Origin: an uncultured Gammaproteobacteria bacterium
Lineage (GTDB): Bacteria > Patescibacteriota > Microgenomatia > CAYXHB01 > CAZYTL01
Length of the DNA stretch: 64,000 bases
Reading direction: 5' to 3'
Assembly: GCA_964650355.1 (NCBI GenBank)
Contig: CAZYTL010000006.1
Span: forward strand, 11,019 to 75,018
How positions within the stretch are numbered: the first letter of the stretch is position 1; each line of letters starts with the position of its first letter. A program made the translations under genes and the position numbers. The notes beneath the pieces are model-generated. The model ran no database searches. It saw nothing but the letters and a program-made list of their open reading frames with translations, and was not told the DNA's origin. This document shows positions 17,861-64,000 of the stretch, one piece after another.

Positions 17861-17886
17861 AAATTTTAAATTCGAAATTGGAGCGA

Positions 17887-18995: not shown

Positions 18996-18997
18996 AA

Positions 18998-19252: not shown

Positions 19253-19270
19253 GCCAAAGGCCTACATGAG

Positions 19271-19522
19271 ATGAATAACATTACAGCCAATGTTGAAATT
19301 ACAAATAATGCTAGACAGAAAGCCAGAAAATTCAACTTGAAAAAGAAGTTTAACAAGCAAGTTGGTTTTCTGGAGTCTAATCCGAGACATAACTCTCTAA
19401 ACTTCAAGCCCTTGGAATCAGCCCATGGCATATGGAGATTTAGGATCGATAAGCACTTCTGGGGCCTAGTGATAAAGACTTCAAATGGTTTAAGAGTATA
19501 CGATGTGATTAAACATCCTTGA
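19271..19522 (+). CDS. type II toxin-antitoxin toxin, RelE/ParE (StbE) family
   Basis: NPRHNSLNFKPLESAHGIWRFRIDKHFWGLVIKTSNGLRVYDVIKH matches the RelE/ParE pattern NPxxG..LkG...g.wr.RiGdyRiiY.i.dd...v..igHRkdvY. Confidence 0.6.
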   Translation: MNNITANVEITNNARQKARKFNLKKKFNKQVGFLESNPRHNSLNFKPLESAHGIWRFRIDKHFWGLVIKTSNGLRVYDVIKHP

Positions 19523-19547
19523 GACGAGGTCCCGTTACTGTTAATAA

Positions 19548-20303: not shown

Positions 20304-20317
20304 AATTAATGGGACCG

Positions 20318-21097: not shown

Positions 21098-21144
21098 AAG
21101 TTAAATTTCTAATCCGCCAGTTGGCGGACTAATTACTAAGGTAT

Positions 21145-45910: not shown

Positions 45911-47002
45911 ATGTCTGAAAATAACCCATCTACTACTGCAGAGATGCGCTTGCAAATTCCTCTGAAAGGAAAACTGGCTAAGACGGCACAGGATGCTGAG
46001 TCGCCGATTCACTTTGTAGGCAAGAGGCTGGCAGAGAAAGTGGGGGCAAAATTCAGTTTCACAAGTGAAAAAGGAGGCGAAAAAATGAAAATGGGTTCTT
46101 TTTTTGCGGAAATGCTCGAATATGATGGAAAAGAGCAAGTGCCGGAGAGTGACGCCCCGCCGGAAGAATGGAACACCTTTATGAATACATACTTTCAGGA
46201 GTTGGCCGAAAATCCAGACACAGTTAGATTATTCCGCGCTGAAAGATATGGAGAGGGAAAAGTTCCCCGGTTATTGGAAATGCATTTGCCGCCGATGCCA
46301 AAAACTAAAGAGGGCTACCGAGATTTCCTGAGGTCCAGGCATCTATTGGCTGGATTACTAGCCGCGTATCAGCAGGAAATTGTGATGATGGTAGGAGTTA
46401 CCAGAATTATGGATGAATCTGTAATAAAACCTGACCATGAAAGAAGGTTGGGCTTTAATTTCAGTAAAATTGAATTAGACAAACTCGATACCAAACATAG
46501 ATTAGCACAACGAATGATAGCGAAATCACCTAACTTGCCACATAAAGATTTACCAATAAAGGGTATTTATATGCCGACGAAAGAATTTTTAGAAAGGGAT
46601 GAGGTGAGTCTGGCGACAGACGAAGAAGGCTGGTTTTTGCAAGCGGGTCCGGTGAAATTTAATTTTTATAAAGCAGGTGAACTAGACATGGAACGTTTAA
46701 GTGCTGATGAGCCGTCCGATAATGTGGACGAAATTGAGGTGGAAATGCCTGGAAATATTAATGAAATAAGTGCAAAAGATAGAGAAAGAGCAAAGTATGT
46801 ACTGGCTGGGTTTTTAAGAAATTTATTACTAGTAGGGACGGTTTCAATGGTCGTAGACGCTGAGAATCCTGACCAAATCCAATTGGCAAAGGATTTGGGG
46901 ATGAAGAGGGGACGGCGTGAAGGGGAAGGTAAAATCAGACTACAGACTACGAGGGCCCTTTTGGAAGAGGAGTGTTATGTACCAACGGGAGAATTCAAGT
47001 AA
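45911..47002 (+). CDS. hypothetical protein, third gene of the graspetide-like operon
   Basis: 363-aa ORF starting 3 nt after the ATP-grasp stop. No TM segment and no recognised family. Confidence 0.5.
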   Translation: MSENNPSTTAEMRLQIPLKGKLAKTAQDAESPIHFVGKRLAEKVGAKFSFTSEKGGEKMKMGSFFAEMLEYDGKEQVPESDAPPEEWNTFMNTYFQELAENPDTVRLFRAERYGEGKVPRLLEMHLPPMPKTKEGYRDFLRSRHLLAGLLAAYQQEIVMMVGVTRIMDESVIKPDHERRLGFNFSKIELDKLDTKHRLAQRMIAKSPNLPHKDLPIKGIYMPTKEFLERDEVSLATDEEGWFLQAGPVKFNFYKAGELDMERLSADEPSDNVDEIEVEMPGNINEISAKDRERAKYVLAGFLRNLLLVGTVSMVVDAENPDQIQLAKDLGMKRGRREGEGKIRLQTTRALLEEECYVPTGEFK

Positions 47003-50124: not shown

Positions 50125-50499
50125 AGTTGTTTGTTTTTGTTTACGACCTATAGTCTACATTATGGAAGAAGATTTGTCAACTTTTAATTTGTTTCAGATT
50201 TAGATTTGATGTTTTAAGGAAAAATTAATAGTTGACAGGGGAGAAGAAATACAGCATATTAGGGAATTGAAAAGACTTCTTCTGCCCGATGCTTCTTTTC
50301 ACAAGTTTGTACCGATGACACTGATCGGGATCAGCGCAGACGGTATCAATTTTTGTTTATACATAATTAAGGTAATTTACTTCACTGGCCGCAATCGGAG
50401 GTGATTGTCTGGAATTAGGAATTATGAATTAGGGGATAGTTGTTGATTGATTCATGATTCTTGATTCATAATTTCATAATTCTTTTTTCGACTTTTATG

Positions 50500-51921
50500 A
50501 ATTCGAGATTCAGACTCATCAGCAGCGTGCTAGTGATCGGGGTAATCATCGCAGCAGTTTTGGGCGCAAGCAGCGCCTTTTTTAGTGACAAAGAAACGAG
50601 TCCTGACAACACGCTGGTGGCCGGAGCAGTGGATTTGAAGATTGATAACACGAGTTATTACAACGGAGAACCTTCTCCGGACACGAGTTGGACTTTGAAT
50701 GATTTGACGGATCAGTTGTTTTTTAATTTCTTGGACGTGAAGCCAGGGGACAGGGGAGAGGACACGATTTCTTTGCATGTGGATGACAATGACGCCTGGG
50801 CGTGCATGAATGTGGAGTTGACCAAGGATGATGACGCGACTTGTACTGAACCGGAACAAATAGATGATCCCACGTGTGATGAACCGGATGAGCCGGAAGA
50901 TTTGTGGGACGGAGAACTGGGAGGGTTGATTAATTTTATTTTCTGGGGTGATGACGGAGACAATGTGTTGGAGCAAGACGAAACTGATTTGGTATTTAAG
51001 GAAGGCACGGCGTCAGCGGTGCTGGCCAATGGGGTATGGAAGCTGGCTGATTCAACAGGCAATATCTGGGATGAGTTTCAGCATCCTCTGCAGGGAGGCA
51101 AGGATTATTACATTGGCAAGGCCTGGTGTTTGGGCCAGCTGACTGAAGCGCCTCTGGAGCAAGACGGCAAAGGGGCGGATAGCGACAGAACACCCGCGAA
51201 TTCCACAGGCGGAGTGCTTTGTGACGGGTCAGGATTGAACAACGCGGCGCAGTCTGATATTTTGATGGCCAATATCGGGTTTTCTGCGATTCAGTCCAGG
51301 CACAACCCGGACTTTACCTGCGGGGAAAACGGGGGAGAGCCGTGCTTTAAGAAGGCTGATTTGATGTTGGTATTGGATCGGTCAGGCAGCATCAATGATA
51401 CAGAATTGGCAACGTTGAAGACGGCGGCCAAAGCGTTTGTGGATGCGCTGGCATTGTCTGCTAATGGCCCGCATGCCGGGGAGGTGAGTTTTGCGACCAC
51501 GGCCAATCTGGACCAGCACTTGACTGATAATCCGGCATCAGTGAAGGCGGTGATTGACGCTCTGGTGCACAACGGGTTTACTGATTTGAAAGACGCGCTT
51601 GATCTGGCTACCGGAGAGCTGGCCAATCCGGGAGACTTACATGACAGACCTGACCTTGAATCACCTGATTATATTATTTTGATTACTGATGGGAATCCGA
51701 ACCGGCCAGACCCGAACACAGCAGTGGCTGAGGGAAGTGCGGCGGCGACCGCGGCTAAGAATGCAGGGATCACGATTTATGTGGTAGGAGTGGGAAGTGA
51801 TGTGGACACGGCTTATTTGCGGGATGATATTGCCACCGACCCGGCGCACTATTTCGCAGCAAATGATTTTGGAGATTTGTCAACGATCCTGGCAACGATA
51901 GCCCAGTGCCCGAATGAATAG
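50500..51921 (+). CDS. TasA/camelysin-like protein with SipW-cognate signal peptide and C-terminal vWA domain
   Basis: The N-terminus (MNSRFRLISSVLVIGVIIAAVLGASSAFFSDKETSPDNTLVAGAVDLKIDN) matches the SipW-cognate signal class. The C-terminal MIDAS motif (VLDRSGSINDTE...ILITDGNPN...IYVVGVGSD) indicates a vWA domain. The start at 50500 is chosen over 50461 by comparison with the two paralogs. Confidence 0.7.
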   Translation, partial: NSRFRLISSVLVIGVIIAAVLGASSAFFSDKETSPDNTLVAGAVDLKIDNTSYYNGEPSPDTSWTLNDLTDQLFFNFLDVKPGDRGEDTISLHVDDNDAWACMNVELTKDDDATCTEPEQIDDPTCDEPDEPEDLWDGELGGLINFIFWGDDGDNVLEQDETDLVFKEGTASAVLANGVWKLADSTGNIWDEFQHPLQGGKDYYIGKAWCLGQLTEAPLEQDGKGADSDRTPANSTGGVLCDGSGLNNAAQSDILMANIGFSAIQSRHNPDFTCGENGGEPCFKKADLMLVLDRSGSINDTELATLKTAAKAFVDALALSANGPHAGEVSFATTANLDQHLTDNPASVKAVIDALVHNGFTDLKDALDLATGELANPGDLHDRPDLESPDYIILITDGNPNRPDPNTAVAEGSAAATAAKNAGITIYVVGVGSDVDTAYLRDDIATDPAHYFAANDFGDLSTILATIAQCPNE

Positions 51922-51932
51922 AGAATCGTTGT

Positions 51933-51960
51933 GCGTTTCGACGTTTCACGTTTCAACGTT
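51933..51960. repeat. GAAACG/CGTTTC-heptamer repeat block flanking the four-helix-bundle gene (left)
   Basis: gcgtttcgacgtttcacgtttcaacgtt. A direct copy is at 52350-52379 and an inverted copy at 52390-52431. Confidence 0.5.
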
Positions 51961-51987
51961 GGTGGTTTTTGTGTTTAAAAGTTATTT

Positions 51988-52305
51988 ATGTCTAGTTCGT
52001 ATCAAGAATTGGATGTGTGGAAGCTTGGTGTAGAACTAGCAGTGTTGGTATATAGAGTAACCAGTCAATTTCCTCAACATGAATTGTACGGCCTCACCAG
52101 TCAAATGCGCAGAGCCTCGGTAGCCGTGGCTTCGAACATTGCGGAAGGTCAAGGCCGGGGATCGAGGAAGGAATTTCGACAATTTTTAAGGATTGCATTT
52201 GGTTCGCTTTTAGAATTAGAAACTCAAGTCGTAATAGCTGAAAGAATTGGATATTTAAATCAAGCTGAGAAGGATAAAATTTTGGAGATGAGCTTGAGGG
52301 TTTAG
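51988..52305 (+). CDS. four-helix-bundle protein (23S rRNA intervening-sequence protein/Avd-like family)
   Basis: ELDVWKLGVELAVLVYRVTSQFPQHELYGLTSQMRRASVAVASNIAEG...EFRQFLRIAFGSLLELETQVVIAER is the family signature. Confidence 0.75.
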   Translation: MSSSYQELDVWKLGVELAVLVYRVTSQFPQHELYGLTSQMRRASVAVASNIAEGQGRGSRKEFRQFLRIAFGSLLELETQVVIAERIGYLNQAEKDKILEMSLRV

Positions 52306-52348
52306 CAAATGATTTTTAAGTTAGAAAAATCTTTAATAAAGTAAAGTA

Positions 52349-52433
52349 AGCGTTGCACGTTTCTCGTTTTTCGTTTCGGCATTCGATCGCGAAACTTAAC
52401 GATGAAACGTTGAAACGAGAAACGCGAAACGTT
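52349..52433. repeat. right-hand direct + inverted GAAACG-type repeat block after the four-helix-bundle gene
   Basis: gcgttgcacgtttctcgtttttcgtttcgg followed by cgaaacttaacgatgaaacgttgaaacgagaaacgcgaaacg. Together they form a long imperfect hairpin. Confidence 0.5.
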
Positions 52434-52454
52434 TTAGAGAGGAGGTGAGAAAAA

Positions 52455-53327
52455 ATGCAAAAGAGAATTTTATTCAGTTTGATGATTATCGGCATTGTCG
52501 GAGCAGTAGTGTTCGGAGCCACCAGAGCGTTTTTCAGCGACACAGAAACGTCATATGATAATACTTTTGTGGCCGGAGATATTGACTTGCAAATTGACAA
52601 TGAAAGTTACGCCATTGACTACAACATCCCCCAGTATGACGGGACGCCGGTCGGCGCGTTGGTATTGAGCGGACTTACCTCATGGCCGATGGGGGATCTA
52701 GATCTTGAGAAGTTTTTCGACTTTAGAGACCTGAAGCCAGGGGACTACGGCGAAGATACCATTTCCGTGCACGTGGGCAGCAATAATGCCTGGTTGTGCG
52801 CCGCAGCGCAAATCACTGATGATTCAGACCAGACCTGTACAGAACCAGAGTTAGAGGATGATGCCAATTGTGCTGAACCCGGAGAAGGATTGGGCGAACT
52901 TGATGAAGGAGTCAATTTCGCTTTCTGGGTTGATGATGGGGACAACGTGCTTGAATCAGACGAAAAAGGATCGATCTTCCTTAACGGTCCGCTAAGCGGA
53001 TTAAGCGAAGCCGGGCAGATCGCACTGGCTGATTCAGAGCACAGCATCCTAGGCGGTAATGAACCTATTCCCGGAGGAACGACCTTTTATATCGGGAAAG
53101 CCTGGTGCTTTGGAAACCTAACCCCAGATCCAGTTGAACAAGGCGAAGGTGGTCCACTAGATCGGGAAACAACCGGATTTAACTGCGATGGTTCCCAAGT
53201 GAAAAATGCGGCCCAGACCGATCAGGTGGTGGGCGATTTGCAGTTCTACGCAGAACAGTCCCGCAACAATGGTCAATTCCTGTGCAGCAATTGGACGCCA
53301 AACTGGGAGCGGCCAGAAGAACCTTAG
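52455..53327 (+). CDS. TasA/camelysin-like protein with SipW-cognate signal peptide
   Basis: MQKRILFSLMIIGIVGAVVFGATRAFFSDTETSYDNTFVAGDIDLQIDN, and blocks shared with its paralogs (KPGDYGEDTISVHV, TCTEPE, YYIGKAWCFG). A GGAGG SD is present. Confidence 0.7.
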   Translation: MQKRILFSLMIIGIVGAVVFGATRAFFSDTETSYDNTFVAGDIDLQIDNESYAIDYNIPQYDGTPVGALVLSGLTSWPMGDLDLEKFFDFRDLKPGDYGEDTISVHVGSNNAWLCAAAQITDDSDQTCTEPELEDDANCAEPGEGLGELDEGVNFAFWVDDGDNVLESDEKGSIFLNGPLSGLSEAGQIALADSEHSILGGNEPIPGGTTFYIGKAWCFGNLTPDPVEQGEGGPLDRETTGFNCDGSQVKNAAQTDQVVGDLQFYAEQSRNNGQFLCSNWTPNWERPEEP

Positions 53328-53450
53328 GACTAACCTAGAACCTGAGTGTCTACCGAGCTCTCCTGTCCGATCTGAAGATCAGAGCCGGAGATTCGGTGGG
53401 CAGTCAGAGGTGCGAAGTGTAAGGCTTCGCGCTTGTGACTGCCCCTCCAA
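53322..53450 (+). repeat. repeat family B copy (CCTTAG.AACCT...CCGAGCTCTCCTGTCC...GCCGGAGATTCGGTGGGCA)
   Basis: Read directly from the sequence. A second copy is at 55430-55545. Confidence 0.4.
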
Positions 53451-53503
53451 AATGTTTCCAGGTTTTTATTAGCTGTTATCTGCTCGGAAGGAGGTGTATG
53501 TAA

Positions 53504-54889
53504 ATGAAAAAGGTGCTTTATAGTATAATGTTGATCGGGATTGTAGGAACTGTAGTTTACGCAGCCACCAATGCCTTTTTCAGCGATACGGAAACTTCGG
53601 TCGGGAATACGTTCGAAGCCGGAGCCATTGATTTGCAGATTGATAATGAGAGCTGGTATAACGGTGAGCCGCGCGAGGATTTATCCTGGGATTTAAGAGA
53701 TTTGACGATTGAAAAGTTCTTTGATTACGCGGATTTGAAACCCGGAGATTGGGGCGAAGATACAGTGAGTCTGCACGTGACCAGCAACCCGGCTTACGCG
53801 TGTGTAGCTTTCCGGATTACGGAAAACAGTGACAACGGGATTACTGAGCCTGAAGACGAAGTTGACGGCAATATTGACCAGGCTGACGGCACGGCTGACG
53901 GTGATCTGGCCCAAGAACTGCATTTCGCTTTCTGGGTAGATGACGGAGACAACGTGCTGGAAGACAATGAGGTTGAATCGCTGGTGGGAGGCCAGGCGGC
54001 TGATGTGTTTGAACAAGGCATATATGCTTTGGCTGATTCCCAGGGCGGGTTGTTTGAAGAAGCGTTGCAGCCGGAAACCGATTATTACATTGGCAAGGCC
54101 TGGTGTTACGGAGACATGAGTCCGGAGCCGGTACCAGCCGGACAAAGCGAGGATCCAAGTGTGGCATCAGGAATTACCTGTAACGGGCAGCCGGTGAGTA
54201 ATATTTCCCAGACAGACAAGTTGGTGGGGGATATTCAGTTCTACGCGGTGCAGACCAGGCACAATGAAGAGTTCCTGTGTAGCAGGGATTATGAACCTAC
54301 ATGGCCAAGACAAATCACGTCAACTACTGGTGACGGCTGGGCAAGCGTGGGTGGAGATTTCACCGAAGCTTGGCAAGCCGACGGTCGCTGGGGTGACGGA
54401 GGGACTTCCAATGCAGAAAATGAAGTTCGTGTTGGACTGGCTGGCGGTGGAAGCCCACAAGCTCAACACCAGAGCGATAACTCTACCGGCCCTTGGAGAA
54501 ATGGGGTAACTGAAAGCTTTACTCTCACCTATGACGGTGGGACTGAAGCAGCCTTGACTATCGGTGATACCACGGCAGATACCACAGTTGACTTACCTTT
54601 GGGTGATGTTCCCGGTGCTAACGGAAAAATCGGGATTACAGTCAAGACTTACGTGGATGATACCGAAGTTAAAGTTGAAAACGTAAAACTTGACGGGATG
54701 TCTCCAGTAGGTCCTGACAGCGTTAGCGAATCAGTCAATGGATCAAAAGAATACCTGGTCATCAGTGGCCTGACAGAGTTGTCTGACGGGTTCACTTTGA
54801 CAGGTGATTTGACATTCACTTGGGGCGGAACAACGCCTTCCTCAGCAGAGGATATGTCCATGCTCATCCAAGTGGAAAATGCGCCTTAG
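53504..54889 (+). CDS. TasA/camelysin-like protein with SipW-cognate signal peptide and extra C-terminal domain
   Basis: MKKVLYSIMLIGIVGTVVYAATNAFFSDTETSVGNTFEAGAIDLQIDN and shared paralog blocks. About 170 aa of additional C-terminal sequence. Confidence 0.7.
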   Translation: MKKVLYSIMLIGIVGTVVYAATNAFFSDTETSVGNTFEAGAIDLQIDNESWYNGEPREDLSWDLRDLTIEKFFDYADLKPGDWGEDTVSLHVTSNPAYACVAFRITENSDNGITEPEDEVDGNIDQADGTADGDLAQELHFAFWVDDGDNVLEDNEVESLVGGQAADVFEQGIYALADSQGGLFEEALQPETDYYIGKAWCYGDMSPEPVPAGQSEDPSVASGITCNGQPVSNISQTDKLVGDIQFYAVQTRHNEEFLCSRDYEPTWPRQITSTTGDGWASVGGDFTEAWQADGRWGDGGTSNAENEVRVGLAGGGSPQAQHQSDNSTGPWRNGVTESFTLTYDGGTEAALTIGDTTADTTVDLPLGDVPGANGKIGITVKTYVDDTEVKVENVKLDGMSPVGPDSVSESVNGSKEYLVISGLTELSDGFTLTGDLTFTWGGTTPSSAEDMSMLIQVENAP

Positions 54890-54923
54890 TTTTGAGACTA
54901 AGTCTGCCCAATTTAACTTGGAG

Positions 54924-54986
54924 GTTGCCAAGTCTTTGGAGGCTTGGCAATCTGCCGCAGTCCCGAAGGGAATCGGGGTTGCGGCA
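54924..54986 (+). terminator. two consecutive hairpins (TTGCCAAG-N10-CTTGGCAA; CTGCCGCA-N20-TGCGGCAG) after the third TasA-like gene
   Basis: Perfect 8-bp stems read directly from the sequence, 35 nt after the stop. Confidence 0.4.
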
Positions 54987-54994
54987 GGTTAGTT

Positions 54995-55037
54995 AGAGAT
55001 CCTTCGATCCACCAAATGGCGGACTCAGGATGACATG
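54995..55037. repeat. repeat family A, degenerate copy (GAGATCCTTCGATCC...GGACTCAGGATGACATG)
   Basis: Read directly from the sequence. Confidence 0.4.
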
Positions 55038-55182
55038 AATTAATATTAAATTGAGGAATGTCAATTTCCGCAAATTTACCGCGGAATTACCGCAGCCTAG
55101 TGGGTGGGCTGTCAAAGCCTTGATTGAACGTAGGTCTTGTCATTCTGGAACAAGCCAGGTGCCAGAAGATACCTGGCGCAGT

Positions 55183-55245
55183 GATAGAATCTCGGAGATC
55201 CTATCGGCCCGATAAGAATCGGACCTCCAGGATGACGGAAGGCGT
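55183..55245. repeat. repeat family A copy with internal expansion (GATAGAATC..GGAGATCCTATCGGCCCGATAAGAATCGGACCTCCAGGATGACGGAAGGCGTCAT)
   Basis: Read directly from the sequence. Contains ATGACG/CGTCAT and ATCGG/CCGAT inverted repeats. Confidence 0.5.
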
Positions 55246-55327
55246 CATGTTAATCAGGGTTTTGACAGCTTAACTACATGATAAATGTGATTTGGAGTTG
55301 TGTACTTTGAGGCTAATTTAGCCTTAA

Positions 55328-55362
55328 GGGGATCCTATCGCTACGCTCCAGGATGACGGGGG
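55328..55362. repeat. repeat family A copy (GGGGATCCTATCGCTACGCTCCAGGATGACGGGGGG)
   Basis: Read directly from the sequence. Confidence 0.5.
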
Positions 55363-55429
55363 GAGTAAGTCCTGCTGTTAGTTTAAGCTGGCGACAAGTT
55401 CCTGGACAAAAGTGAAGGGACTTGCAAAA

Positions 55430-55545
55430 ACCTTAGAACCTATCATGGTGAACCGATGCTAAATTCGGTTCTCATGGTTGATCTGCCGAGCTCTCCTGTC
55501 CTGTAAAAAGAGTTTGGTGCCGGAGATTCGGCGGGCAACCACAGT
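55430..55545 (+). repeat. repeat family B copy
   Basis: CCTTAGAACCT...CTGCCGAGCTCTCCTGTCC...GTGCCGGAGATTCGGCGGGCA. Confidence 0.4.
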
Positions 55546-55649
55546 TCTGCAAACCTGTCTGCATGCCGGGTAAAATAGGAGTTGAAGGATTGTGGCAGCC
55601 GAAGTAAAACCTTACTGAGCAATAAAAGGTTATAATTAAGGGGAAACTT

Positions 55650-56000
55650 ATGGCTGTTCTGTTAACGGGAGAGATCCTTGACGAGATAAGGACCAAGGGG
55701 GAGGAGATGGAAATGGGGTATTATTTCCGTCTTGGTCCGGACATTTATATCAGAATCACTAATCCGGAAGAAGAGATCCCGGAAGCAGGTAGAGGTGGCA
55801 TAGAGGAGCGGGTTGATGACTCAGGCACTTACGAAGTACTGAATGACCCGACGATGATGCAATTTATCAGCGATTTTCATGATCCTAGCCGGATTAAAGA
55901 GACCCGAGGTTATTTGCTACCTATTTTAGTGCCAAGAGGATTTATGTTATTAACTGCTCAACGGGATTTTTTCCGTAGAATTCCCGAGGAATTTCAGTAG
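55650..56000 (+). CDS. hypothetical protein
   Basis: 116-aa ORF with a weak SD and no recognised family. Confidence 0.35.
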   Translation: MAVLLTGEILDEIRTKGEEMEMGYYFRLGPDIYIRITNPEEEIPEAGRGGIEERVDDSGTYEVLNDPTMMQFISDFHDPSRIKETRGYLLPILVPRGFMLLTAQRDFFRRIPEEFQ

Positions 56001-56049
56001 CCGTATCACGTAATACGTAGCACGTAACAATATATTAATTCCTGATTCA

Positions 56050-57165
56050 TTGTTAAATACTATGCAGTCTTTACATTACTTATTCAGAATTTTTCAATTA
56101 TTAGTGACTATTTTGGTGGTGGTGTTCGCCGGGGTGCTGATTCTGACGGCTTTGCCGGTGAAAGGGAATATTAAATTGTTAACGGTGCTGTCCGGTTCAA
56201 TGGGGCCCACGATTCCGGTGGGCAGCGCGGTGTTGATCAAGCCGGTTGATCATTACCTAACCAATGAGGTGATTACTTATGCCCGCGGGGGCAATGAAAA
56301 GCAGCTGGTAACGCACAGGATTGTGGCTACGCAGTTTGTGAACGGGGAAAAGCAGTATATTACTAAAGGAGACGCCAACGAGGATCCGGATCCGGCCGTG
56401 GTAAAAGCTGATCAGGTGAAGGGGCAGGTGTTGCTGACGGTGCCGTATCTGGGATATGTGGCGAATTGGATCAAGACGCCGGCCGGGTTTGTGAGTCTGA
56501 TTGTGTTGCCGGCGGCGATTTTGATTTACGGAGAGTTGATGGCAGTGAAAAATGAGATGGTGAGAGCATGGAAGAAAAGGCATTTGGGAGTGCTGGCGTT
56601 GTTAGTGGTGATAGCGGCCGGATGGCAGTTAAACAGTAATACTCAGGCGATGCTGGAAGACAGGGAAGTGAGCGAGATGAATACGATCCAGGCGTGGGTA
56701 GAAGGTACGGCCGTGGAAGTTCAGACGGACGGAACGCAGGAAACAACCCCGACAGGTGAGCCGTCTCCAACGCCTCCTGAAGGAGCCAATTTGGTGATTA
56801 ATGAGTTGTTAGCCAATCCTCAAACAGATTTTACTTATGAATGGGTGGAAATTTATAATCCCACCGGAGCGGATGTGGATCTGACTGACTGGGCGTTGAA
56901 GGATGCGGCAAATCCTGCAAAAAGTTTATCCGGATTAGGGACAATTTCGGCCGGAGGATTTAAGGTTTATAGCGACCATAATTGGTTAAATAATAGTGGG
57001 AGTGAAACTTTGCAATTAATGTTTCCGGGTACCAATGTAGTAGACGAGGTCACATACACTGGCACGTCAGCTGACGTGTCGCATGGTAGGGAAACTGACG
57101 GAGGGCTGCCGTGGAAAGACTGCGGCACGGCAACTCAAGGCAGTTCGAATAATGGCAGCTGCTAA
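56050..57165 (+). CDS. SipW-type (archaeal-type) signal peptidase I fused to a C-terminal lamin-tail domain
   Basis: N-terminal TM segment, then LSGSMGPTIPVGSAVLIKP...VTHRIV...ITKGDANEDPDPAVV (catalytic Ser/His region of SipW-like SPases). The C-terminus (LVINELLANPQTDFTYEWVEIYNPTGADVDLTDWAL) is an LTD signature. Confidence 0.75.
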   Translation: MLNTMQSLHYLFRIFQLLVTILVVVFAGVLILTALPVKGNIKLLTVLSGSMGPTIPVGSAVLIKPVDHYLTNEVITYARGGNEKQLVTHRIVATQFVNGEKQYITKGDANEDPDPAVVKADQVKGQVLLTVPYLGYVANWIKTPAGFVSLIVLPAAILIYGELMAVKNEMVRAWKKRHLGVLALLVVIAAGWQLNSNTQAMLEDREVSEMNTIQAWVEGTAVEVQTDGTQETTPTGEPSPTPPEGANLVINELLANPQTDFTYEWVEIYNPTGADVDLTDWALKDAANPAKSLSGLGTISAGGFKVYSDHNWLNNSGSETLQLMFPGTNVVDEVTYTGTSADVSHGRETDGGLPWKDCGTATQGSSNNGSC

Positions 57166-57175
57166 ATGAATCAGG

Positions 57176-58324
57176 ATGTTAAAAAGGCGAATTTTAACTA
57201 TTTTATTTTTGGCTTTGTTGGTAGGGATCGGTTGGTGGGGAGTGGATCACCAGGGGTGGTTGATTCAGGCGGCCGGACCGCTGGTGGTGACCTGGGAGGA
57301 CACGCCATTGTTTTATGTGACTAATATGCTGCCCGGAGACAGCGAGTCCAAGACGATCGGATTTGATAATCAAAAGGACCAGAGTGTGCAGATCGGGTTA
57401 AGAGCGATAAAAGTGGAAGAGGATCCGACTGATCCGGCGATTTCTCAGGTGTTGGATGTGGTAGTGGAAAAGGTGGGAGGAAGTGTGTTGTATGGACAGG
57501 GTAGTCCGGGCGGAGCAAAGACGTTGGCAGATTTGTTAATGGAATTTGACGGCAGCGACTCGCTGGTGTTGGGAACTTTGGCGCCTGGAGATAAAGCTGA
57601 TTACATGATGACGGTGGAGATGCCTACATGGGTCGGGAATGAATACCAGGGCGCCAAGGTGGTGTTTAATTTGCAGGTGATTACTGATCATAAGGCCTTG
57701 GATTTGCCGCCGGAATGTGAGCATTTGAGAGGCACGATCACGGCAGTGATTGAAGGCACGGAGGGGAAGGATGTGCTGCGAGGGACTTCGGCCAATGAGC
57801 TGATTATCGGATACGGAGAAAAGGATAATATCAAAGGCAATGGAGGCGATGATTGCCTGGTGGGAGGAGACGGGGATGACCATATTAACGGGGGAACAGG
57901 GAATGATGTGCTGATCGGGGGAGAAGGTAATGATGATTTGGACGGGCATTTTGGCAATGATTTGATCTACGGAGGCAATGGAAATGATTTGCTGAAAGGC
58001 AAGCAGGGACAGGATGTGTTTTACGCCGGAGAAGGGGATGACAAAGTGCGTGCCGGGTCAGGCGAAGACCTGATTTTCGGAGGACCAGGGAATGACCAAT
58101 TGGAAGGAGGAGGAGACGATGATTTGATTTTTGGGGAAGCGGGAAATGACATGATTAAAGGTGACAGTGGGGATGATGTGATTGAAGGGGGACAGGGAGA
58201 TGATGACATGAACGGCAACAGCGGGGATGATCATTTGACCGGGGATGCGGACACGGACAAGGCTAACGGGAGCTCGGGAACTGATACCTGCGACGCGGAG
58301 ACGGAAATTCACTGCGAGCTATGA
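57176..58324 (+). CDS. membrane-anchored protein with RTX-type (GGxGxDxUx) calcium-binding repeats
   Basis: N-terminal TM helix and a central domain. The C-terminal array (GGDGDDHINGGTGNDVLIGGEGNDDLDG...) is a run of hemolysin-type repeats. Confidence 0.6.
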   Translation: MLKRRILTILFLALLVGIGWWGVDHQGWLIQAAGPLVVTWEDTPLFYVTNMLPGDSESKTIGFDNQKDQSVQIGLRAIKVEEDPTDPAISQVLDVVVEKVGGSVLYGQGSPGGAKTLADLLMEFDGSDSLVLGTLAPGDKADYMMTVEMPTWVGNEYQGAKVVFNLQVITDHKALDLPPECEHLRGTITAVIEGTEGKDVLRGTSANELIIGYGEKDNIKGNGGDDCLVGGDGDDHINGGTGNDVLIGGEGNDDLDGHFGNDLIYGGNGNDLLKGKQGQDVFYAGEGDDKVRAGSGEDLIFGGPGNDQLEGGGDDDLIFGEAGNDMIKGDSGDDVIEGGQGDDDMNGNSGDDHLTGDADTDKANGSSGTDTCDAETEIHCEL

Positions 58325-58393
58325 TCAGCGGTCAGAAGAAGGTAATCCTGACCAGGTGATGACAAATGAGGTATAATTTGACTGGAGTCTAAT

Positions 58394-59695
58394 ATGTCTG
58401 AAGGAATGACCGGGCAGGTGGAAGTACGGAAAGGGCCACGAGCGCAAGCCTTAACACCTCTTTATGAAAAGGCAATGGAGGCGGCAGGCGCGCCGTTGCC
58501 CGCACTCTCGTCTGATAGATTACTGGAATGCTCAACGAAAATCGACAAGGAAAGAAGCGATCCCAAATTTGTTCTAGATGGAGATGATTTGCGAGATATA
58601 TTGGAAATACATGGGATAAACGGCTTTTTACGAGATCAAGTGGTTGACCAAGTAAGCGGACTGCGAAGTGATGTGGAAACCCTCACCAACGCTCACCCTG
58701 ACCGGCAGACGAATATCTCCCTGATCTTGTCAACACTGCGAGAACAATCGCGAGTGCAACAGGCATGGGAGGCGGTACCAAACGAAATACAAAAATTGGT
58801 GGCAGATTATAATGAGCGCTGGACGCCAGGAAGGCGACAATGGACGGTGAGAAAAAACATGGGTGGGGGAAAATTCGTAGAAGAGGAGGGGAAGGAAACT
58901 CAAGAAGAAGCCGATGCAAGGCTGCAAAAAAATAAAGATAAGTTAGGAATATGGAAAAGTGTAGCGGTAACTGATGAACAGCGATATTTATTGCCTGCAG
59001 TGAAGTTTCTGAACAAAGAATTTTCTGTCGACAAGCTGACAGAGTTAGGTTATACAAATGAGGTCAGGGAGCGATTAATCCAGATGATGAAACTTCTGGA
59101 TGATCCCGAGGCCTATCCAGAACTCCAAAAGACATATCCGACCACAGTTTGGAAGCATAGAGATGAATTCTATTATTCAAGACTGGCCCAAATAGCGATG
59201 CCGTTGGTAGAGGCACAAATAAAGGAAGAAAAAAGGAATCGGAATACCGTTCTCGTAGAGACGGCAGCGCAAACCATGAGATCAATGCGAGAAAGAGGAG
59301 GAGGTAACCCCCAAGCACAGGATACAGGTTTGGCAGATCTCTATGCTGACCTTCAATTATTAGCGCGGTCTGATAATGAGAACCGGATACGAAGACAAGG
59401 AGGAAAGTTAGTTGGCACGCAAAGAGAAGACCAGATTCAAGCGCGAAAGCAATTAGTGCAAAAAATAAGATCCAGATTGGGTAACCATTTACCCGGGGTG
59501 ATGATAGTAGGGAATCAGGGATATGAAGGAGTAAGTCTTGACGGTCAAATGTATGACGGATCTAATCCGGCAATGACTTTCTGGTTGGCAAGAAAGCTAG
59601 AAACCCGGCTGTCGGACAAGAGCCACCTGCGACAGATACCTTTGGCCCGGTTACAAGAGTGGCAACAAGGAAAAGCCGAGTTAAAAGAAGAGTAA
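58394..59695 (+). CDS. hypothetical protein (433 aa)
   Basis: Long ORF with charged/helical composition and no recognised family. Confidence 0.45.
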   Translation: MSEGMTGQVEVRKGPRAQALTPLYEKAMEAAGAPLPALSSDRLLECSTKIDKERSDPKFVLDGDDLRDILEIHGINGFLRDQVVDQVSGLRSDVETLTNAHPDRQTNISLILSTLREQSRVQQAWEAVPNEIQKLVADYNERWTPGRRQWTVRKNMGGGKFVEEEGKETQEEADARLQKNKDKLGIWKSVAVTDEQRYLLPAVKFLNKEFSVDKLTELGYTNEVRERLIQMMKLLDDPEAYPELQKTYPTTVWKHRDEFYYSRLAQIAMPLVEAQIKEEKRNRNTVLVETAAQTMRSMRERGGGNPQAQDTGLADLYADLQLLARSDNENRIRRQGGKLVGTQREDQIQARKQLVQKIRSRLGNHLPGVMIVGNQGYEGVSLDGQMYDGSNPAMTFWLARKLETRLSDKSHLRQIPLARLQEWQQGKAELKEE

Positions 59696-59872: not shown

Positions 59873-60364
59873 ATGGGAACGGAGTATCGCTTAATCACAG
59901 CAATTGAGGAAAGAAATCTTACGAAAAGAGCGCGTTTTGTTAATTGGGTAATGGATAAAGAAACCTTTTTGGGAGTAGTTTGGACGGCGAATACCCGCCA
60001 CTCACTATTGAGATTATCTCCTCCTTTTGAATCGTTAGTGATAAAGCCTCGAGGTTGGAAGGAGATCTCAGTCGTGAATGAAGGAAGAGAAGAATTCTAC
60101 TGGGACAGAAATAAGATAGGGGCGCTTCTACCTCCAGAGGAAGAGAAGATACTGTCTTTAACGTCAGGAGAGCAAGGTCGTATTATGAAGGCGGGTACTG
60201 ATCTGGAGAGAGCGATTGTGGCCAGAATAAATGTGAGAGGAGCCTTGGATAATCTAAACTTAGCAAATCCCATGGCGGATCTACAGTCAGGAGAATTTTT
60301 CAACTTATGGTGGATGGGATATGTAAGAAGGATAAGCGGAGAGCTTGCTCAATTGGCTGGTTGA
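59873..60364 (+). CDS. hypothetical protein
   Basis: 163-aa ORF. The 3' end overlaps the end of the convergent large minus-strand gene. Confidence 0.3.
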   Translation: MGTEYRLITAIEERNLTKRARFVNWVMDKETFLGVVWTANTRHSLLRLSPPFESLVIKPRGWKEISVVNEGREEFYWDRNKIGALLPPEEEKILSLTSGEQGRIMKAGTDLERAIVARINVRGALDNLNLANPMADLQSGEFFNLWWMGYVRRISGELAQLAG

Positions 60365-62820
60365 TCGAGAGTGTCTCTCATCCAGATCTGGAGGTGGGGA
60401 TGATCAAAGACGGAAAAGGTTTCTTCGGCCAAGGCTTCGTCGGTGATGGCGAAAGGCCCGATGCGGGGAGCGTTATAGAAGTCGGCGACTTTGGTGAAGC
60501 CCAGGTCTCCGGAAAACAGTTGCTGGTAAAATTTAGCGGCTTGAGGAAATTGGTCTGGGTGATCAAGGGTATGTTTCCAGAGGCGACGGGAAAGGAGGAC
60601 GATGACGGCGGTTTGGGGAAGGGTAGCGGCTAGTTCCTGCTGACGTTGATAAGAGATGCTGGTTTCTGGAGGCAAAGATTCGTCGGATGATTGATCAAGT
60701 TCGTAAAAATTGAACAAGGTAATATGAGACATAAATCTCGGATTGAAGGGAATAATGCCCAGGTCCCAGACTTCGGAAATAATGCGGGAATTTTGCGGAA
60801 TATGTTGAACGGCCCACTGAGCGGCTTGGATGCGAGGATCAGGCTGAAGGTAGACGGAGAATAAAGACAAGCCTTGAATTACTTGCCAACCAATGATGAT
60901 CAAGAGAAACAGTGGGTATATTTTCAATCTTTTGTTTAATTGTTTCATGGTTTCATTGTTCCATTGTTGAAGTGCGATTAATATCCAAACAGCAGCAAAT
61001 ATCAAATAAGGCAGAGTGGGGATAGTATATCTAGTCCATTTGACGTAGAGTTGACCGATGAAGCCGAATTGGAGGAGGAAAAAGATCACTAGTAGGGAGG
61101 AAGCAGGAAGTAGAGATGGAGACGGTTTCGGAGTGCGGAGAGACAAAATTAGTCCGAGGAGACCCAGGATGAGTACTGGCCAGGAAAGGATCCAGGGGTA
61201 GACGTGGGTGAATTGGTAAAGGTAAGGGATGGTGTTAATAAAGTGACGGGTGTAGAAGGTGGAAATGGTGCCGCGGGCGATGTCGCCTTCGATACCGATA
61301 GAATAAGCAAAGGCAGGATTCAAATTATCCTCGGCTGATTTAATCAGTTCGAGAGGGTGGAGCAAAGTGTACGCTTCAGAAGATGGCTGAGGATGGACGG
61401 CTGGCGGGGGTGGAGGGTTGCCTCCTTTGTCTAAGGGAAGGAGGGCACGGAGAGTAAAAGGGTTAGTAACAAAGAAAATAACCGAACTGGCCAAAATCAG
61501 AGCGGATGATTTAAGAATGAGACTAAATAACCGGTTGACGAAGGCCGGAACCGGAGATTGGAAATAGGCGGGAGAAAGGGAAAGAGGAGCGAGAAGAGTG
61601 CGCGTTTTATGAAAGATGATTCTGGGAAGATTAATGAGCAGGAGGATGGTTTCCCAAACCCAATTAATGATGGAGCCGGCGGGAATACTTGATCCGTAAG
61701 CGGCAATGCCACAAGCCCAGAAGGCTAACAATGACCAAGCAAGATGGTAATCGCTGGTGACGACTAAAATCGACTGATAATCTGCCTGTTTAATTAGTTT
61801 GGTGACGGCTTGGGCGTTGCCCATGGTAGTATGAGACCGAGCTTCAAGGGTAAGATGGGAAGGCTTGACGCCGGCTTTAAGAGCCATCTCCTGCATAGCC
61901 TGAGCTTCGCTGGAGGCTGAATCAGAGAGGCGGTGCCCGGACCCGCCACTGAAGATCAGTTGCGGCGCCAAGCCCTGCTGGTAAAGTTTGAGGGCATGGC
62001 TAACCCTGTTTTTAAGCTCAACTGAAGGTTTACCAGAAGAAGATAAGGATTTGCCCAAGACCACAATGGCATCGTATTTTTCAAGATGAGAAGGATGGAC
62101 GGTTTGTTTGATTAACCACCAAAATAAGGCGAAACACAAAGCAGGAAGAAGGACAAGGCTGGTGACTTTAGTGCCCACGGCCAGACCAAGAAGCAGAGCG
62201 GCCCAGGTGATCCACTTCCAGGTGGGATTTCTGGCCAGTTCAAGAGCAACCACGAATAAGAGGAGGCGAAGAAAGGTGAGCCAGATCTCAAAGGTGCCGA
62301 AATGAGCGAACTGGATGAAACCAAAGCTAAAGGTGGTGAGAGTGGCGGATAAGAGAGGAATTAAGGTGGAGGGTTTAGGGTTTAGGGTGGATTTATTAAT
62401 GGGGCTAAAATATCTTTGGGTGATCCAATACATCAAAGGGATGAGAGCGGTAGAGAGGAGGGCGGAGATAATCCGACCGACTTTGATGGCAGTGAAAAAA
62501 GGGTCTTCAGTGACGCTCAGCCAGTGTTGAGCGGCTTTAACCAGGAAGAAGTTAAGGTAGATGGGCACGGTGCCGTAAGCAAAGAAATCAGGATCCATGT
62601 TATACGGCCAGCTGAGACGGGTGACGGCAGAGGCAATGTTGCGCTCGTCAGGATGGAACCACCAGGGTTCTCCCCAGTTGAGGTTGGTGAAGCGCAGGTA
62701 AGCGCCGATGAGGGTAAGGATGAACAATAAGAAGATTTCCACACGAATGAACCCGAATAGAACTCGAATTGGCGCGAAAAGGTGGCTTTTGTGTAGTGAC
62801 CGTAGGGATAGTTTACTCAT
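60349..62820 (-). CDS. GT-C (GT39/ArnT-like) membrane glycosyltransferase fused with an internal DUF218 (YdcF/SanA-like) domain
   Basis: The N-terminal region (LRFTNLNWGEPWWFHPDERNIASAV...) is typical of GT39/ArnT-family proteins. The mid-protein block (IVVLGKSLSSSGKPSVELKNRVSHALKLYQQGLAPQLIFSGGSG...VTSDYH) is a DUF218 signature. Many TM helices. Confidence 0.55.
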   Translation of the reverse strand: MSKLSLRSLHKSHLFAPIRVLFGFIRVEIFLLFILTLIGAYLRFTNLNWGEPWWFHPDERNIASAVTRLSWPYNMDPDFFAYGTVPIYLNFFLVKAAQHWLSVTEDPFFTAIKVGRIISALLSTALIPLMYWITQRYFSPINKSTLNPKPSTLIPLLSATLTTFSFGFIQFAHFGTFEIWLTFLRLLLFVVALELARNPTWKWITWAALLLGLAVGTKVTSLVLLPALCFALFWWLIKQTVHPSHLEKYDAIVVLGKSLSSSGKPSVELKNRVSHALKLYQQGLAPQLIFSGGSGHRLSDSASSEAQAMQEMALKAGVKPSHLTLEARSHTTMGNAQAVTKLIKQADYQSILVVTSDYHLAWSLLAFWACGIAAYGSSIPAGSIINWVWETILLLINLPRIIFHKTRTLLAPLSLSPAYFQSPVPAFVNRLFSLILKSSALILASSVIFFVTNPFTLRALLPLDKGGNPPPPPAVHPQPSSEAYTLLHPLELIKSAEDNLNPAFAYSIGIEGDIARGTISTFYTRHFINTIPYLYQFTHVYPWILSWPVLILGLLGLILSLRTPKPSPSLLPASSLLVIFFLLQFGFIGQLYVKWTRYTIPTLPYLIFAAVWILIALQQWNNETMKQLNKRLKIYPLFLLIIIGWQVIQGLSLFSVYLQPDPRIQAAQWAVQHIPQNSRIISEVWDLGIIPFNPRFMSHITLFNFYELDQSSDESLPPETSISYQRQQELAATLPQTAVIVLLSRRLWKHTLDHPDQFPQAAKFYQQLFSGDLGFTKVADFYNAPRIGPFAITDEALAEETFSVFDHPHLQIWMRDTLDQPAN

Positions 62821-62877: not shown

Positions 62878-63555
62878 TTAGTCTGCAAGACTACAGACAG
62901 GTACGCAGACCTGGATACAGGCTCGAGTACTGGGTTGATGGCGGCAGGCAGAAGCACAGGAGTCATAAGTACCCCCGAGAATTTGAGTGCAATCCTGATC
63001 TTTGATGTTTTCACACTCCTGATATTGATCCAGCCACTGGCCACCTAACTGTTCACAGAGTGACTGGTGGTCAGAAGATCGGGGTTGTTCGCAGGTTTGC
63101 TGGCATTGTTCAAGGGTGTTAAAGGGGACCACACCTTGACAACCGCCCCAGAGAAATTGCTGGCACGACTGTGTTTGGTGGTCAAAGTAATATTTGGGAA
63201 AAGCTGCCTCGCAGGGGCCGGCTTTAGGAACCAAGTTACAGCGGAAGGTACATTTGGCAGGTTGATAATCGCAACTATCTGGATCACAGGGGTCAAGATT
63301 GGGTTGGCATTTGGAGATTCTGTCTCGATCGACCGGGGAACCGGTGGTGGAATCAGGTGAGGGGCTGGGGTTTACAACAGGTGAAGATTGAAAGGTGGGT
63401 GGACCTTTAAATATCTGCTGTCCGGTGAGGAGGATGATGACCAGGGCAGGGATGAAAATGATGATGAGGAGCACAAATGGCAACACATACCACCACGGAA
63501 GGCGGGGAAGGATTGATGGGTGTTTGTCAGAGGATGAGGTGGAAGGTGCGTCCAT
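62878..63555 (-). CDS. membrane-anchored protein with Kunitz/BPTI-type domain and a second Cys-rich domain
   Basis: TM helix (WWYVLPFVLLIIIFIPALVIILL). The block CNLVPKAGPCEAAFPKYYFDHQTQSCQQFLWGGCQGVVPFNTLEQCQQTC has Cys spacing 8/15/7/11/2 and the F-x-(Y/W)-GGC motif characteristic of Kunitz domains. Confidence 0.55.
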   Translation of the reverse strand: MDAPSTSSSDKHPSILPRLPWWYVLPFVLLIIIFIPALVIILLTGQQIFKGPPTFQSSPVVNPSPSPDSTTGSPVDRDRISKCQPNLDPCDPDSCDYQPAKCTFRCNLVPKAGPCEAAFPKYYFDHQTQSCQQFLWGGCQGVVPFNTLEQCQQTCEQPRSSDHQSLCEQLGGQWLDQYQECENIKDQDCTQILGGTYDSCASACRHQPSTRACIQVCVPVCSLAD

Positions 63556-63627
63556 GGTGATAACGAATTTTAAAGGATTGGCAGTGAGATTAGCAAAAGG
63601 ATTTTGATTTCTAAAGGTTTGAAAAAA

Positions 63628-64000
63628 TTAATCTATACATAACTCCGGGGCCAGTTGGCTGTTCTCAACAAAGCTGAAACAGCCAAAGATATGCTCGTAA
63701 TTAGCACACTGGCCAGGAATCTTGCCTTCATAACTAATACACCGACCCGATTGACATTGACCACCGTCAGTACAAGATTGATCGGCATCTGAATAAGGGA
63801 TCTGGCAAAACTCCCGGCCGACTATCCCCCAAGCCCGCCAGTCTCCGCCAGCTGCTTCACAGGCTTCCTTGGTTGAAGGCGCTTCTGAAGGGGTGGGAGA
63901 AGGAATCGGAGTCAGTGACTGATCCAAAAACCGGAAGGTGGAGAGGATTTGGTTGATAAGTTGGTGTTTTTTTAGACCTCCACCAAACTCTTCATCATCC
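63628..64000 (-). CDS. cysteine-rich protein, N-terminus beyond window edge
   Basis: The frame stays open to position 64000. The C-terminal part has 9 Cys (CEAAGGDW...CTDGGQCQSGRC...) and resembles the second Cys-rich domain of the adjacent Kunitz protein. Confidence 0.4.
   Translation of the reverse strand, partial: DDEEFGGGLKKHQLINQILSTFRFLDQSLTPIPSPTPSEAPSTKEACEAAGGDWRAWGIVGREFCQIPYSDADQSCTDGGQCQSGRCISYEGKIPGQCANYEHIFGCFSFVENSQLAPELCID

Follow-up and report, generated by a model that had tools for sequence, protein, structure and literature searches.

Does a prokaryotic gene encode a genuine Kunitz-type serine-protease inhibitor, and if so, against which enzymes would it act? The question is raised by one end of a 64,000-nucleotide stretch of contig CAZYTL010000006.1 (assembly GCA_964650355.1; the whole stretch is here called the window), where a complete open reading frame (ORF) codes for a Cys-rich protein of 225 amino acids (aa). 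As inhibitors found in animals, Kunitz/BPTI domains are textbook examples, and they also serve as drug scaffolds. The original prediction for this locus described a membrane-anchored Kunitz protein with a paralogous Cys-rich gene beside it, and the peptide quoted there (CNLVPKAGPCEAAFPKYYFDHQTQSCQQFLWGGCQGVVPFNTLEQCQQTC) corresponds to residues 106–155 in the translation of ORF 62878..63555 on the minus strand. The coordinates of all features are collected in Table 1.

Identification of the Kunitz/BPTI domain

It is near certain that residues 105–156 constitute a genuine Kunitz/BPTI domain (PF00014, MEROPS I2). The Pfam profile PF00014 matches these residues at 51.8 bits (gathering cut-off 21; E-value 9.1e-14), and the match spans profile positions 1–53 of 53. 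Searching the PDB sequences with phmmer returned 102 Kunitz chains, among them SmCI (3e-25), TFPI (1e-16), boophilin (1e-13) and BPTI (~1e-6). An AlphaFold model of residues 101–158, based on a 13-sequence alignment, reached a predicted local distance difference test (pLDDT) score of 79.6 and a predicted template modelling score of 0.63. Its secondary structure elements (H4-7, E19-25, E30-36 and H48-55) follow the Kunitz order of a short N-terminal helix, a hairpin and a C-terminal helix. In a Foldseek comparison of the model with the PDB, the top 50 matches were all Kunitz structures (probability 1.00, template modelling score 0.74–0.86, root mean square deviation 1.2–2.1 Å, identity 28–47 %), including TFPI-2 KD1, boophilin, textilinin and BPTI (0.75–0.86 in template modelling score for these). 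Both the profile and the fold thus bear out the Kunitz/BPTI assignment of the original prediction.

The Cys residues of the domain are spaced 8/15/7/11/3. The first four gaps are those given in the original prediction, whereas the last one had been miscounted as 2. By alignment and fold search the six Cys fall column for column on the three structural disulfides of BPTI. Since they occupy homologous alignment columns, we infer the pairing 106–155, 115–139 and 131–151 (BPTI 5–55, 14–38 and 30–51; order 1–6, 2–4, 3–5). The canonical binding loop of the family (G12-P13-C14-P1-A/G16 in BPTI numbering) is found as A-G-P-C-E-A-A-F and the secondary loop (G36-G37-C38) as W-G-G-C. The domain further resembles BPTI, TFPI, TFPI-2, textilinin, boophilin and SmCI in its six-Cys framework, the F33-x-aromatic-G-G-C38 core, the YYF strand, the N-terminal 3-10 turn, the beta-hairpin and the C-terminal helix, and its identity to solved domains is 32–47 %. 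Judged from sequence and model, it is a member of the Kunitz/BPTI family, with all the defining features that are open to testing by these means.

Membrane anchor and genomic origin

The original prediction placed the domain outside the cell on a transmembrane anchor and a Pro/Ser linker, and our analysis agrees with this. Residues 24–42 are the only strongly hydrophobic stretch of the protein (mean Kyte–Doolittle value 3.31; the maximum beyond residue 50 is 0.62), and the full-length AlphaFold model has a helix at residues 21–44 with a block pLDDT of 92–95. Overall this model (13-row alignment) has a pLDDT of 53.8, and its usable parts are the transmembrane helix and the secondary structure of the Kunitz domain only. 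The linker, residues 45–82, contains 7 Pro, 7 Ser and 3 Thr, i.e., 17 of its 38 residues. The protein is accordingly predicted to be attached to the membrane by a transmembrane helix or signal anchor. Anchoring as a bacterial lipoprotein was considered and rejected: the lipobox pattern [LVI][ASTVI][GAS]C is absent, the first Cys (residue 83) being located far past the hydrophobic segment 21–44. The N-terminus (MDAPS...) is kept in the homologue P0004 (MDSPS...), which has a similar N-terminal anchor.

The 18 Cys residues are arranged in three blocks (83/90/95/102; 106/115/131/139/151/155; 167/181/189/200/204/213/217/221), and the natural reading of a single N-terminal transmembrane helix followed by 18 Cys would place the Cys-rich part outside the cell.

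The gene is a genuine prokaryotic chromosomal gene and not contamination. An identical protein (P0001) is on record from both the NCBI source (86,464-bp contig) and an independent Logan assembly of run SRR14802573 (26,602-bp contig), and the gene order around the Kunitz gene on the Logan contig is the same as in the window. The GC content of the gene is 0.51, compared with 0.43–0.52 for the neighbouring genes, and the window also encodes DnaK, ribosomal protein L25, transketolase, RNase H and ABC transporters.

The reactive loop and its P1 residue

The alignment with BPTI is ungapped from Cys5 to Cys38 (residues 106–139 on BPTI 5–38) and puts Glu116 on Lys15, the P1 position. The original prediction had proposed a check for trypsin- or subtilisin-type specificity at this position; by textbook P1 rules Glu116 fits neither. 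Glu at P1 gives poor binding to trypsin, chymotrypsin and subtilisin; tight binding to Glu-specific S1 proteases is possible. Komiyama et al. reportedly found in 1991 that the Leu18Glu variant of turkey ovomucoid third domain (OMTKY3), with Glu at P1, is a strong inhibitor of the Glu-specific protease of S. griseus (GluSGP).

Loop statistics were drawn from 90 unique prokaryotic Kunitz domains. G12 and C14 are invariant, A16 is found in 82 and P13 in 56 of the domains. W35, G36, G37 and C38 are also invariant (90/90), these columns being fixed by the search pattern itself. The P1 position is variable, with an entropy of 2.44 bits (K40, E18, R11, D7, F4, M3, N2, Y2, L2, Q1). An acidic P1 occurs in 25 of the domains (28 %) and is a regular class, often paired with a basic-P1 copy. 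As far as sequences can tell, a constant loop with a diversified P1 is the classic signature of canonical inhibitors.

The same trend is seen in tandem genes or domains, whose copies mainly differ at P1. The copies carry R/L/E at L053:2689-3500 and L061:2918-3780, K/E at L047:1031-1512 and L040:9667-10159, KEKEKR in the six-domain protein at L014:9548-10684 and K/K/D/D in P0002. Such a pattern suggests that the reactive site diversified after the copies had arisen by duplication. A link between acidic P1 and transmembrane anchoring was also considered and rejected, as 7 of 28 transmembrane-anchored forms have an acidic P1 against 7 of 39 lipobox forms.

A prokaryotic subfamily and its distribution

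All 12 database homologues (12/12) share the arrangement KYYFD...C..F.WGGCQGVVPFETLEEC and a gap of 11 residues between Cys4 and Cys5. The gap is one residue shorter than in BPTI (12), the position of Asn43 being gone, and is common to all 90 prokaryotic domains. We refer to these proteins as the WGGC[QD]GVVPF subfamily. The single pattern WGGC[QD]GVV, scanned against 185,579 species-representative genomes, gave at least 68 confirmed loci, or ~0.04 % of species as a lower bound, in line with the earlier statement that such domains are rare in bacteria. A metagenome scan added 208 further stretches.

The subfamily is rare yet phylogenetically scattered. Bacteroidota are the commonest hosts, including the cultured Maribacter algicola and Pelagihabitans pacificus and also Saprospiraceae. 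Other bacterial hosts are Myxococcota, Marinimicrobia/Fidelibacterota, Nitrospirota, Proteobacteria and one Saccharibacteria genome, and among the archaea there are Woesearchaeota, Altiarchaeota and one Methanosarcinales metagenome-assembled genome (MAG). Most members are ~80 aa long, with a single Kunitz domain behind a signal peptide and its lipobox Cys. Export signals are present in nearly all members, and some are short transmembrane-anchored proteins like that of the window. Such short forms include those on contigs from 0.1–0.2 µm groundwater fractions: L081, L084, L086 (P1 Glu) and L101 (P1 Lys). Three loci in MAGs of DPANN archaea (L006:9413-10339, L030:9410-10336 and L020:53-658) encode mosaics that are transmembrane-anchored, very rich in Cys and have Glu at P1. 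The motif LCExxGG, which follows the Kunitz domain in the window protein, also follows it in L006 and L030.

NCBIfam contains no model matching the window protein, and a search for orthologues on metagenome contigs with the whole protein gave 64 pattern matches, of which 0 were confirmed. In the searchable literature the phrase "bacterial Kunitz" occurs only in PMC11511053, and no study of the WGGC[QD]GVVPF subfamily was found. The subfamily is visible to Pfam-based annotation (one member is even named by the Joint Genome Institute) and appears to be experimentally untouched.

The C-terminal 8-Cys module

The Kunitz domain is followed by a module with eight Cys, which we searched (residues 157–225) with phmmer against 1.84 billion cluster representatives (50 % identity). 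The search returned 861 representatives at E ≤ 1e-3, of which 157 reached E ≤ 1e-10; the best non-self match had an E-value of 2.6e-40. The consensus CxxxGGxWLxxYxECExIxxxxCxxLGGxFxxCASACRHDPxAExCIxxCVxVC contains eight invariant Cys, and a hidden Markov model (HMM) of the module gives 82.4 bits (E 7.7e-25) on the Kunitz ORF, which holds the sole copy within the window. No Pfam model matches the module and a profile search found no relative in the PDB. With its 861 clusters, the module is thus a candidate new domain family; its carriers are catalogued as P0014–P0161.

In most cases the module closes an exported protein, ending at most 5 residues from the C-terminus in 92 of 146 copies. Its partners among 148 carriers are ZnuA-like (9), Kazal inhibitor (5), PsbP_2 (5), DUF333 (3), Gmad2 (3) and PG_binding_1 (2) domains, and it is also combined with SLH surface proteins. 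The only other carrier with both a Kunitz domain and the module is P0124, with P1 Lys. In P0004 a different middle domain lies between the same N-terminal anchor and a module of 78 % identity, and the Kunitz unit is thus one interchangeable cassette on a conserved anchor-plus-module frame.

In the ZnuA-like solute-binding proteins P0020 (470 aa) and P0040 (377 aa), one or two modules are found at the usual position of the His-rich metal loop. The flanks of the module in P0020, where metal-ligand His residues are usual, read by eye ...DPTTF... and ...DPYYW.... The insertions into ZnuA-like proteins hint at a metal-related role of the module.

Comparison with known inhibitors

The window protein differs from known Kunitz proteins in five ways: the one-residue deletion between Cys38 and Cys51 (11 instead of 12 residues, without Asn43) together with Trp for Tyr35 and GVVPF after Cys38; the acidic P1; the prokaryotic origin; the N-terminal transmembrane anchor; and the two other Cys-rich units fused to the domain, the 4-Cys segment and the 8-Cys module. 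With the WGGC[QD]GVVPF lipoproteins it shares the signature, the 11-residue gap, the conserved loop and export, at 46–71 % identity over the domain. Unlike most of these (~80 aa, one domain, P1 Lys), it has a transmembrane anchor, a long linker, P1 Glu and extra Cys-rich modules.

Exported standard-mechanism inhibitors that protect the cell envelope from serine proteases are known from bacteria, i.e., ecotin (MEROPS I11) and the Streptomyces subtilisin inhibitor (I16). The likeness to these is confined to the proposed role and mechanism: fold and sequence are unrelated, no Pfam match to them is found here, and they are soluble periplasmic or secreted dimers, whereas the window protein is membrane-anchored.

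The Kunitz domains KABP1-5 from a record of "Acinetobacter baumannii F6W77" (KAB1093641.1) inhibit FXa and FXIa in a P1-dependent manner (Sun et al., 2024; PMC11511053). The KABP protein consists of five tandem domains behind a 15-aa signal peptide, has P1 Arg in its active domains and was modelled on tick boophilin; its authors considered the domains animal-like and suggested transfer from the host (PMC11511053). Compared by description only, KABP1-5 and the window protein have in common a Kunitz domain in a bacterial genome record and the six-Cys framework. The KABP protein differs in its cleaved signal peptide and P1 Arg and has neither a membrane anchor nor extra modules (PMC11511053).

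Proteases encoded near Kunitz genes

In two Bacteroidota genomes (L024 and L067) the gene for a P1-Lys Kunitz lipoprotein lies 60–77 bp from that of an S1 protease of 1,082 or 1,095 aa, secreted by the type IX secretion system (T9SS). The gene pairs are L024:3-275 with L024:335-3580 and L067:6502-9786 with L067:9866-10180. The catalytic domain of this protease matches Achromobacter protease I (API), a lysyl endopeptidase (PDB 1arb), with an E-value of 9e-72, and the Asp aligned to API Asp225 is kept. From our own reading of the alignment we take Asp225 to be the Lys-specificity residue. The P1 Lys would then agree with the specificity of the neighbouring protease, as expected from a cognate inhibitor, and the two form a candidate pair. 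In L143, a T9SS S8 subtilase gene is divergent from a P1-Lys Kunitz gene. Across 68 genome loci and 80 metagenome loci the neighbour analysis revealed no general protease partner; synteny around the Kunitz loci occurs within clades only and involves topoisomerase, LVIVD-repeat protein, homocysteine methyltransferase and M20 genes.

The one secreted serine protease of the window is an S8 subtilase (Table 1), located ~30 kb from the Kunitz gene and separated from it by more than 20 unrelated genes. A dockerin on this protease would imply attachment to a cohesin-bearing scaffold.

Proposed function and alternative explanations

We consider the window protein to be probably a surface-displayed standard-mechanism serine-protease inhibitor, and the conserved loop speaks rather for than against an inhibitory function of its Kunitz domain. 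It would be a type-II (N-in) single-pass membrane protein, in which a flexible Pro/Ser/Thr stalk carries the Cys-rich ectodomain on the outer side of the cytoplasmic membrane, with a canonical Kunitz/BPTI domain of the prokaryote-specific subfamily as the core of this ectodomain. By the standard (Laskowski) mechanism of animal Kunitz inhibitors, the rigid, disulfide-braced loop G-P-C-[P1]-A would dock like a substrate into a serine endopeptidase and block its active site, with specificity coming mainly from P1. As P1 is Glu, the protein is predicted to be a poor inhibitor of enzymes of the trypsin, chymotrypsin and subtilisin types. The best candidate target would be an S1 endopeptidase with Glu/Asp specificity, like GluV8 or GluSGP; that the target is indeed a Glu-specific protease is possible, and we put it forward tentatively. 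Tethered to the membrane, the protein would shield the surface of its own cell from a protease that comes from outside or that the cell itself secretes.

Several observations weigh against inhibition. Some animal Kunitz domains with an acidic or otherwise unusual P1 have no measurable inhibitory activity, and the one-residue deletion removes an Asn43 that is conserved in the animal domains. The proposed disulfide pairing comes from the alignment, and no biochemical data for any member of the subfamily were found in the searchable literature. No S1 protease is encoded within the 64-kb window. An S1 neighbour is found at only 2 of the 68 genome loci and at 0 of the 80 metagenome loci, and an S8 neighbour at 1 of the latter; as the two genomes with an S1 neighbour are related, genomic context gives weak support. 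Scenarios that involve a host are guesses.

The Kunitz domain might instead be a non-inhibitory binding or adhesion module on an ultra-small cell, directed at a partner cell or a matrix component, which we regard as rather unlikely while finding it worth serious weighing. It would fit a P1 Glu that by textbook rules suits the common S1 and S8 enzymes badly, a protein that is a mosaic of three Cys-rich units, an 8-Cys module that is shuffled among unrelated surface proteins (ZnuA-like, PsbP_2, PG_binding_1, SLH), and P0004, where another domain replaces the Kunitz unit between anchor and module. However, conservation of the contact loop (G12, P13, C14, A16, G36, G37) around a variable P1 is hard to explain without protease binding, the acidic P1 of 25 of the 90 domains often stands in tandem with basic-P1 copies, and the 8-Cys module also accompanies Kazal inhibitor domains (5 of 148 proteins). 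The original prediction named the window's own S8 protease among the possible targets. The enzyme is a real subtilase of extracellular design (Peptidase_S8 domain, FG-GAP repeats, weak dockerin match), and the subtilase adjoining the Kunitz gene in L143 would be a parallel; nothing joins the two genes of the window across the distance between them, however, Kunitz/BPTI domains classically act on S1 enzymes, an acidic P1 is by textbook rules unfavourable for subtilisins, and the lone S8-adjacent example in L143 has P1 Lys and not Glu. We find it improbable that the Kunitz protein is the cognate inhibitor of this subtilase and guards the cell surface against it.

Still less probable is a metal-binding surface protein with the Cys as metal ligands or redox centres and a functionally incidental Kunitz match. 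This is suggested by the module with its conserved CRH(D), inserted at the His-rich loop position of ZnuA-like proteins (9 of 148), but it concerns the C-terminal module alone, is based on domain co-occurrence alone and leaves the six Kunitz Cys aligned with the three structural disulfides of BPTI. The great majority of Kunitz domains are animal, and one might also think of contamination with eukaryotic DNA or of a chimeric assembly; the chance of this is negligible, given the housekeeping and transporter genes on the contig, the gene order repeated in the Logan assembly, the matching GC content and the closest relatives, which are prokaryotic lipoproteins, including some encoded on a 2-Mb scaffold that belongs to a cultured Maribacter.

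Returning to surface-displayed inhibition, a wider reading can be built on it that we consider unlikely to hold in all its parts. Prokaryotes would have their own Kunitz clade, marked by the one-residue deletion and WGGC[QD]GVVPF and spread horizontally, with P1 diversified to match microbial proteases (Lys for lysyl, Glu/Asp for glutamyl endopeptidases). In ultra-small surface-attached cells, membrane-tethered Cys-rich mosaics with the 8-Cys module would neutralise the proteases of hosts or neighbours. The spread of the clade over Bacteroidota, Myxococcota, Marinimicrobia, bacteria of the candidate phyla radiation and DPANN archaea is part of this joint reading and is held just as cautiously. 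If true, a native prokaryotic clade with diversified P1 would be a natural specificity library, including the acidic P1 that is uncommon in well-studied inhibitory domains. It would offer testable protease–inhibitor pairs, e.g., lysyl endopeptidase and P1-Lys Kunitz in L024 and L067, and a handle on the defence of microbial surfaces against each other's proteases, possibly including those of episymbiotic ultra-small cells. The finding extends a known family into poorly explored territory and does not overturn current understanding.

Adjacent genes and other features of the window

The neighbouring Cys-rich gene had been described as a downstream paralogue sharing a C-terminal CE..GG.W motif. 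Read in the direction of transcription, the gene precedes the Kunitz gene and is thus upstream of it. The motif is indeed shared (CEAAGGDW in the neighbour and CEQLGGQW in the Kunitz protein), but in the neighbour it opens the Cys-rich domain and is not C-terminal. Paralogy was rejected: BLASTP gave an E-value of 0.15 over 11 residues, the module HMM 0.1 bits and hhalign a probability of 12.9–13.9 % over 10 columns, so that the likeness is limited to the CExxGGxW stretch of 10 residues. The Cys spacing of the neighbour's 8-Cys domain is quite unlike that of the module. The two are alike in design, as modular secreted Cys-rich proteins, but by every test we applied to the sequences they are not paralogous. 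The ILSTFRFLDQ junction of the neighbour is common to P0004, and the Logan contig extends the gene 15 bp beyond the window. No relatives of the neighbour ORF were found in Pfam (E ≤ 1), NCBIfam, the PDB or the database homologue search. DUF333 (PF03891) was considered for its CExxGG-led domain and rejected, with no Pfam match at E ≤ 1 and no NCBIfam match.

Table 1. Features of the Kunitz gene and of the surrounding 64-kb window.
Feature	Position	Strand	Basis and remarks
Complete coding sequence, 225-aa Kunitz mosaic protein	62878..63555	minus	ATG start, stop codon 62878-62880; ORF list
N-terminal tail, residues 1-20 (MDAPSTSSSDKHPSILPRLP), presumed cytoplasmic	63496..63555	minus	Translation; topology suggested by Cys-rich C-terminal part
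Predicted single transmembrane helix / uncleaved signal anchor, residues 21-44 (WWYVLPFVLLIIIFIPALVIILLT)	63424..63495	minus	Hydropathy and AlphaFold helix
Pro/Ser/Thr-rich linker, residues 45-82	63310..63423	minus	Composition; low pLDDT in model
Small 4-Cys segment, residues 83-102 (CQPNLDPCDPDSCDYQPAKC)	63250..63309	minus	Cys 83, 90, 95, 102; no Pfam match
Kunitz/BPTI domain, residues 105-156	63088..63243	minus	Cys 106, 115, 131, 139, 151, 155; PF00014, PDB matches, AlphaFold, Foldseek
Reactive-site loop P3-P3' = P-C-E-A-A-F	63199..63216	minus	P1 Glu116 codon 63208-63210; BPTI alignment and translation
C-terminal 8-Cys module, residues 167-221 (C-x4-G-x-W ... CASACRH ... C-x3-C-x3-C)	62893..63057	minus	Family search; unannotated family
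Upstream neighbour, 3' part, truncated by window edge	63628..>64000	minus	Domain ending ...QILSTFRFLDQ, Pro/Ser/Thr linker, different 8-Cys domain opening with CEAAGGDW
Downstream gene, 823-aa polytopic membrane protein, DUF218	60349..62820	minus	Pfam DUF218 E 2.5e-24; 57 bp past Kunitz stop
S8 subtilase, 1,209 aa, secreted	29618-33247	minus	Peptidase_S8 E 1.5e-56, FG-GAP repeats, weak sub-threshold C-terminal dockerin match
MvdD-like ATP-grasp enzyme	44910-45908	plus	Pre-ATP-grasp domain E 1.6e-17; type maturing microviridin-class peptides
363-aa protein after ATP-grasp gene	45911-47002	plus	No Pfam match
Run of probable surface/secreted proteins	50461-59695	plus	VWA-domain, lamin-tail-domain, RTX-repeat, 433-aa without match
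Four ABC-2 type permease genes (ABC2_membrane_6)	17072-21996	minus	Two adjacent pairs, ~0.9-kb gap and ORF with TPR match (19548-20303) between
DUF4349 gene	22021-23016	minus (permeases' strand)	Directly past permeases

The same-strand gaps around the Kunitz gene are 72 bp on the side of the neighbour and 57 bp on that of the 823-aa gene, which is compatible with co-transcription. A promoter and terminator scan gave counts not above those of shuffled controls and says nothing on operon structure. The 823-aa protein has a match to TMEM260-like protein O-mannosyltransferases of 22.5 bits, below the cut-off of 24.2. It is conceivable that it would O-glycosylate the Pro/Ser/Thr linkers encoded by both upstream genes.

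Microviridins are themselves protease inhibitors. None of the small ORFs checked for a microviridin precursor peptide to accompany the MvdD-like enzyme was recognised as one. Two of the proteins encoded in the run at 50461-59695 (plus strand) match only the N-terminal signal region of camelysin (Peptidase_M73). No tRNA genes or Rfam families were found in the 64 kb. The window also encodes a DUF4012 protein. This, the PsbP_2-type ...ILSTF[KR]F junctions, the transmembrane anchors where others have lipoboxes and the relatives from 0.1–0.2 µm groundwater fractions give an impression, and no more than that, of a cell like those of the candidate phyla radiation (Patescibacteria). In 4-kb blocks, the GC skew (G over C, plus strand) is above zero throughout, with values between 0.06 and 0.30 regardless of gene strand.

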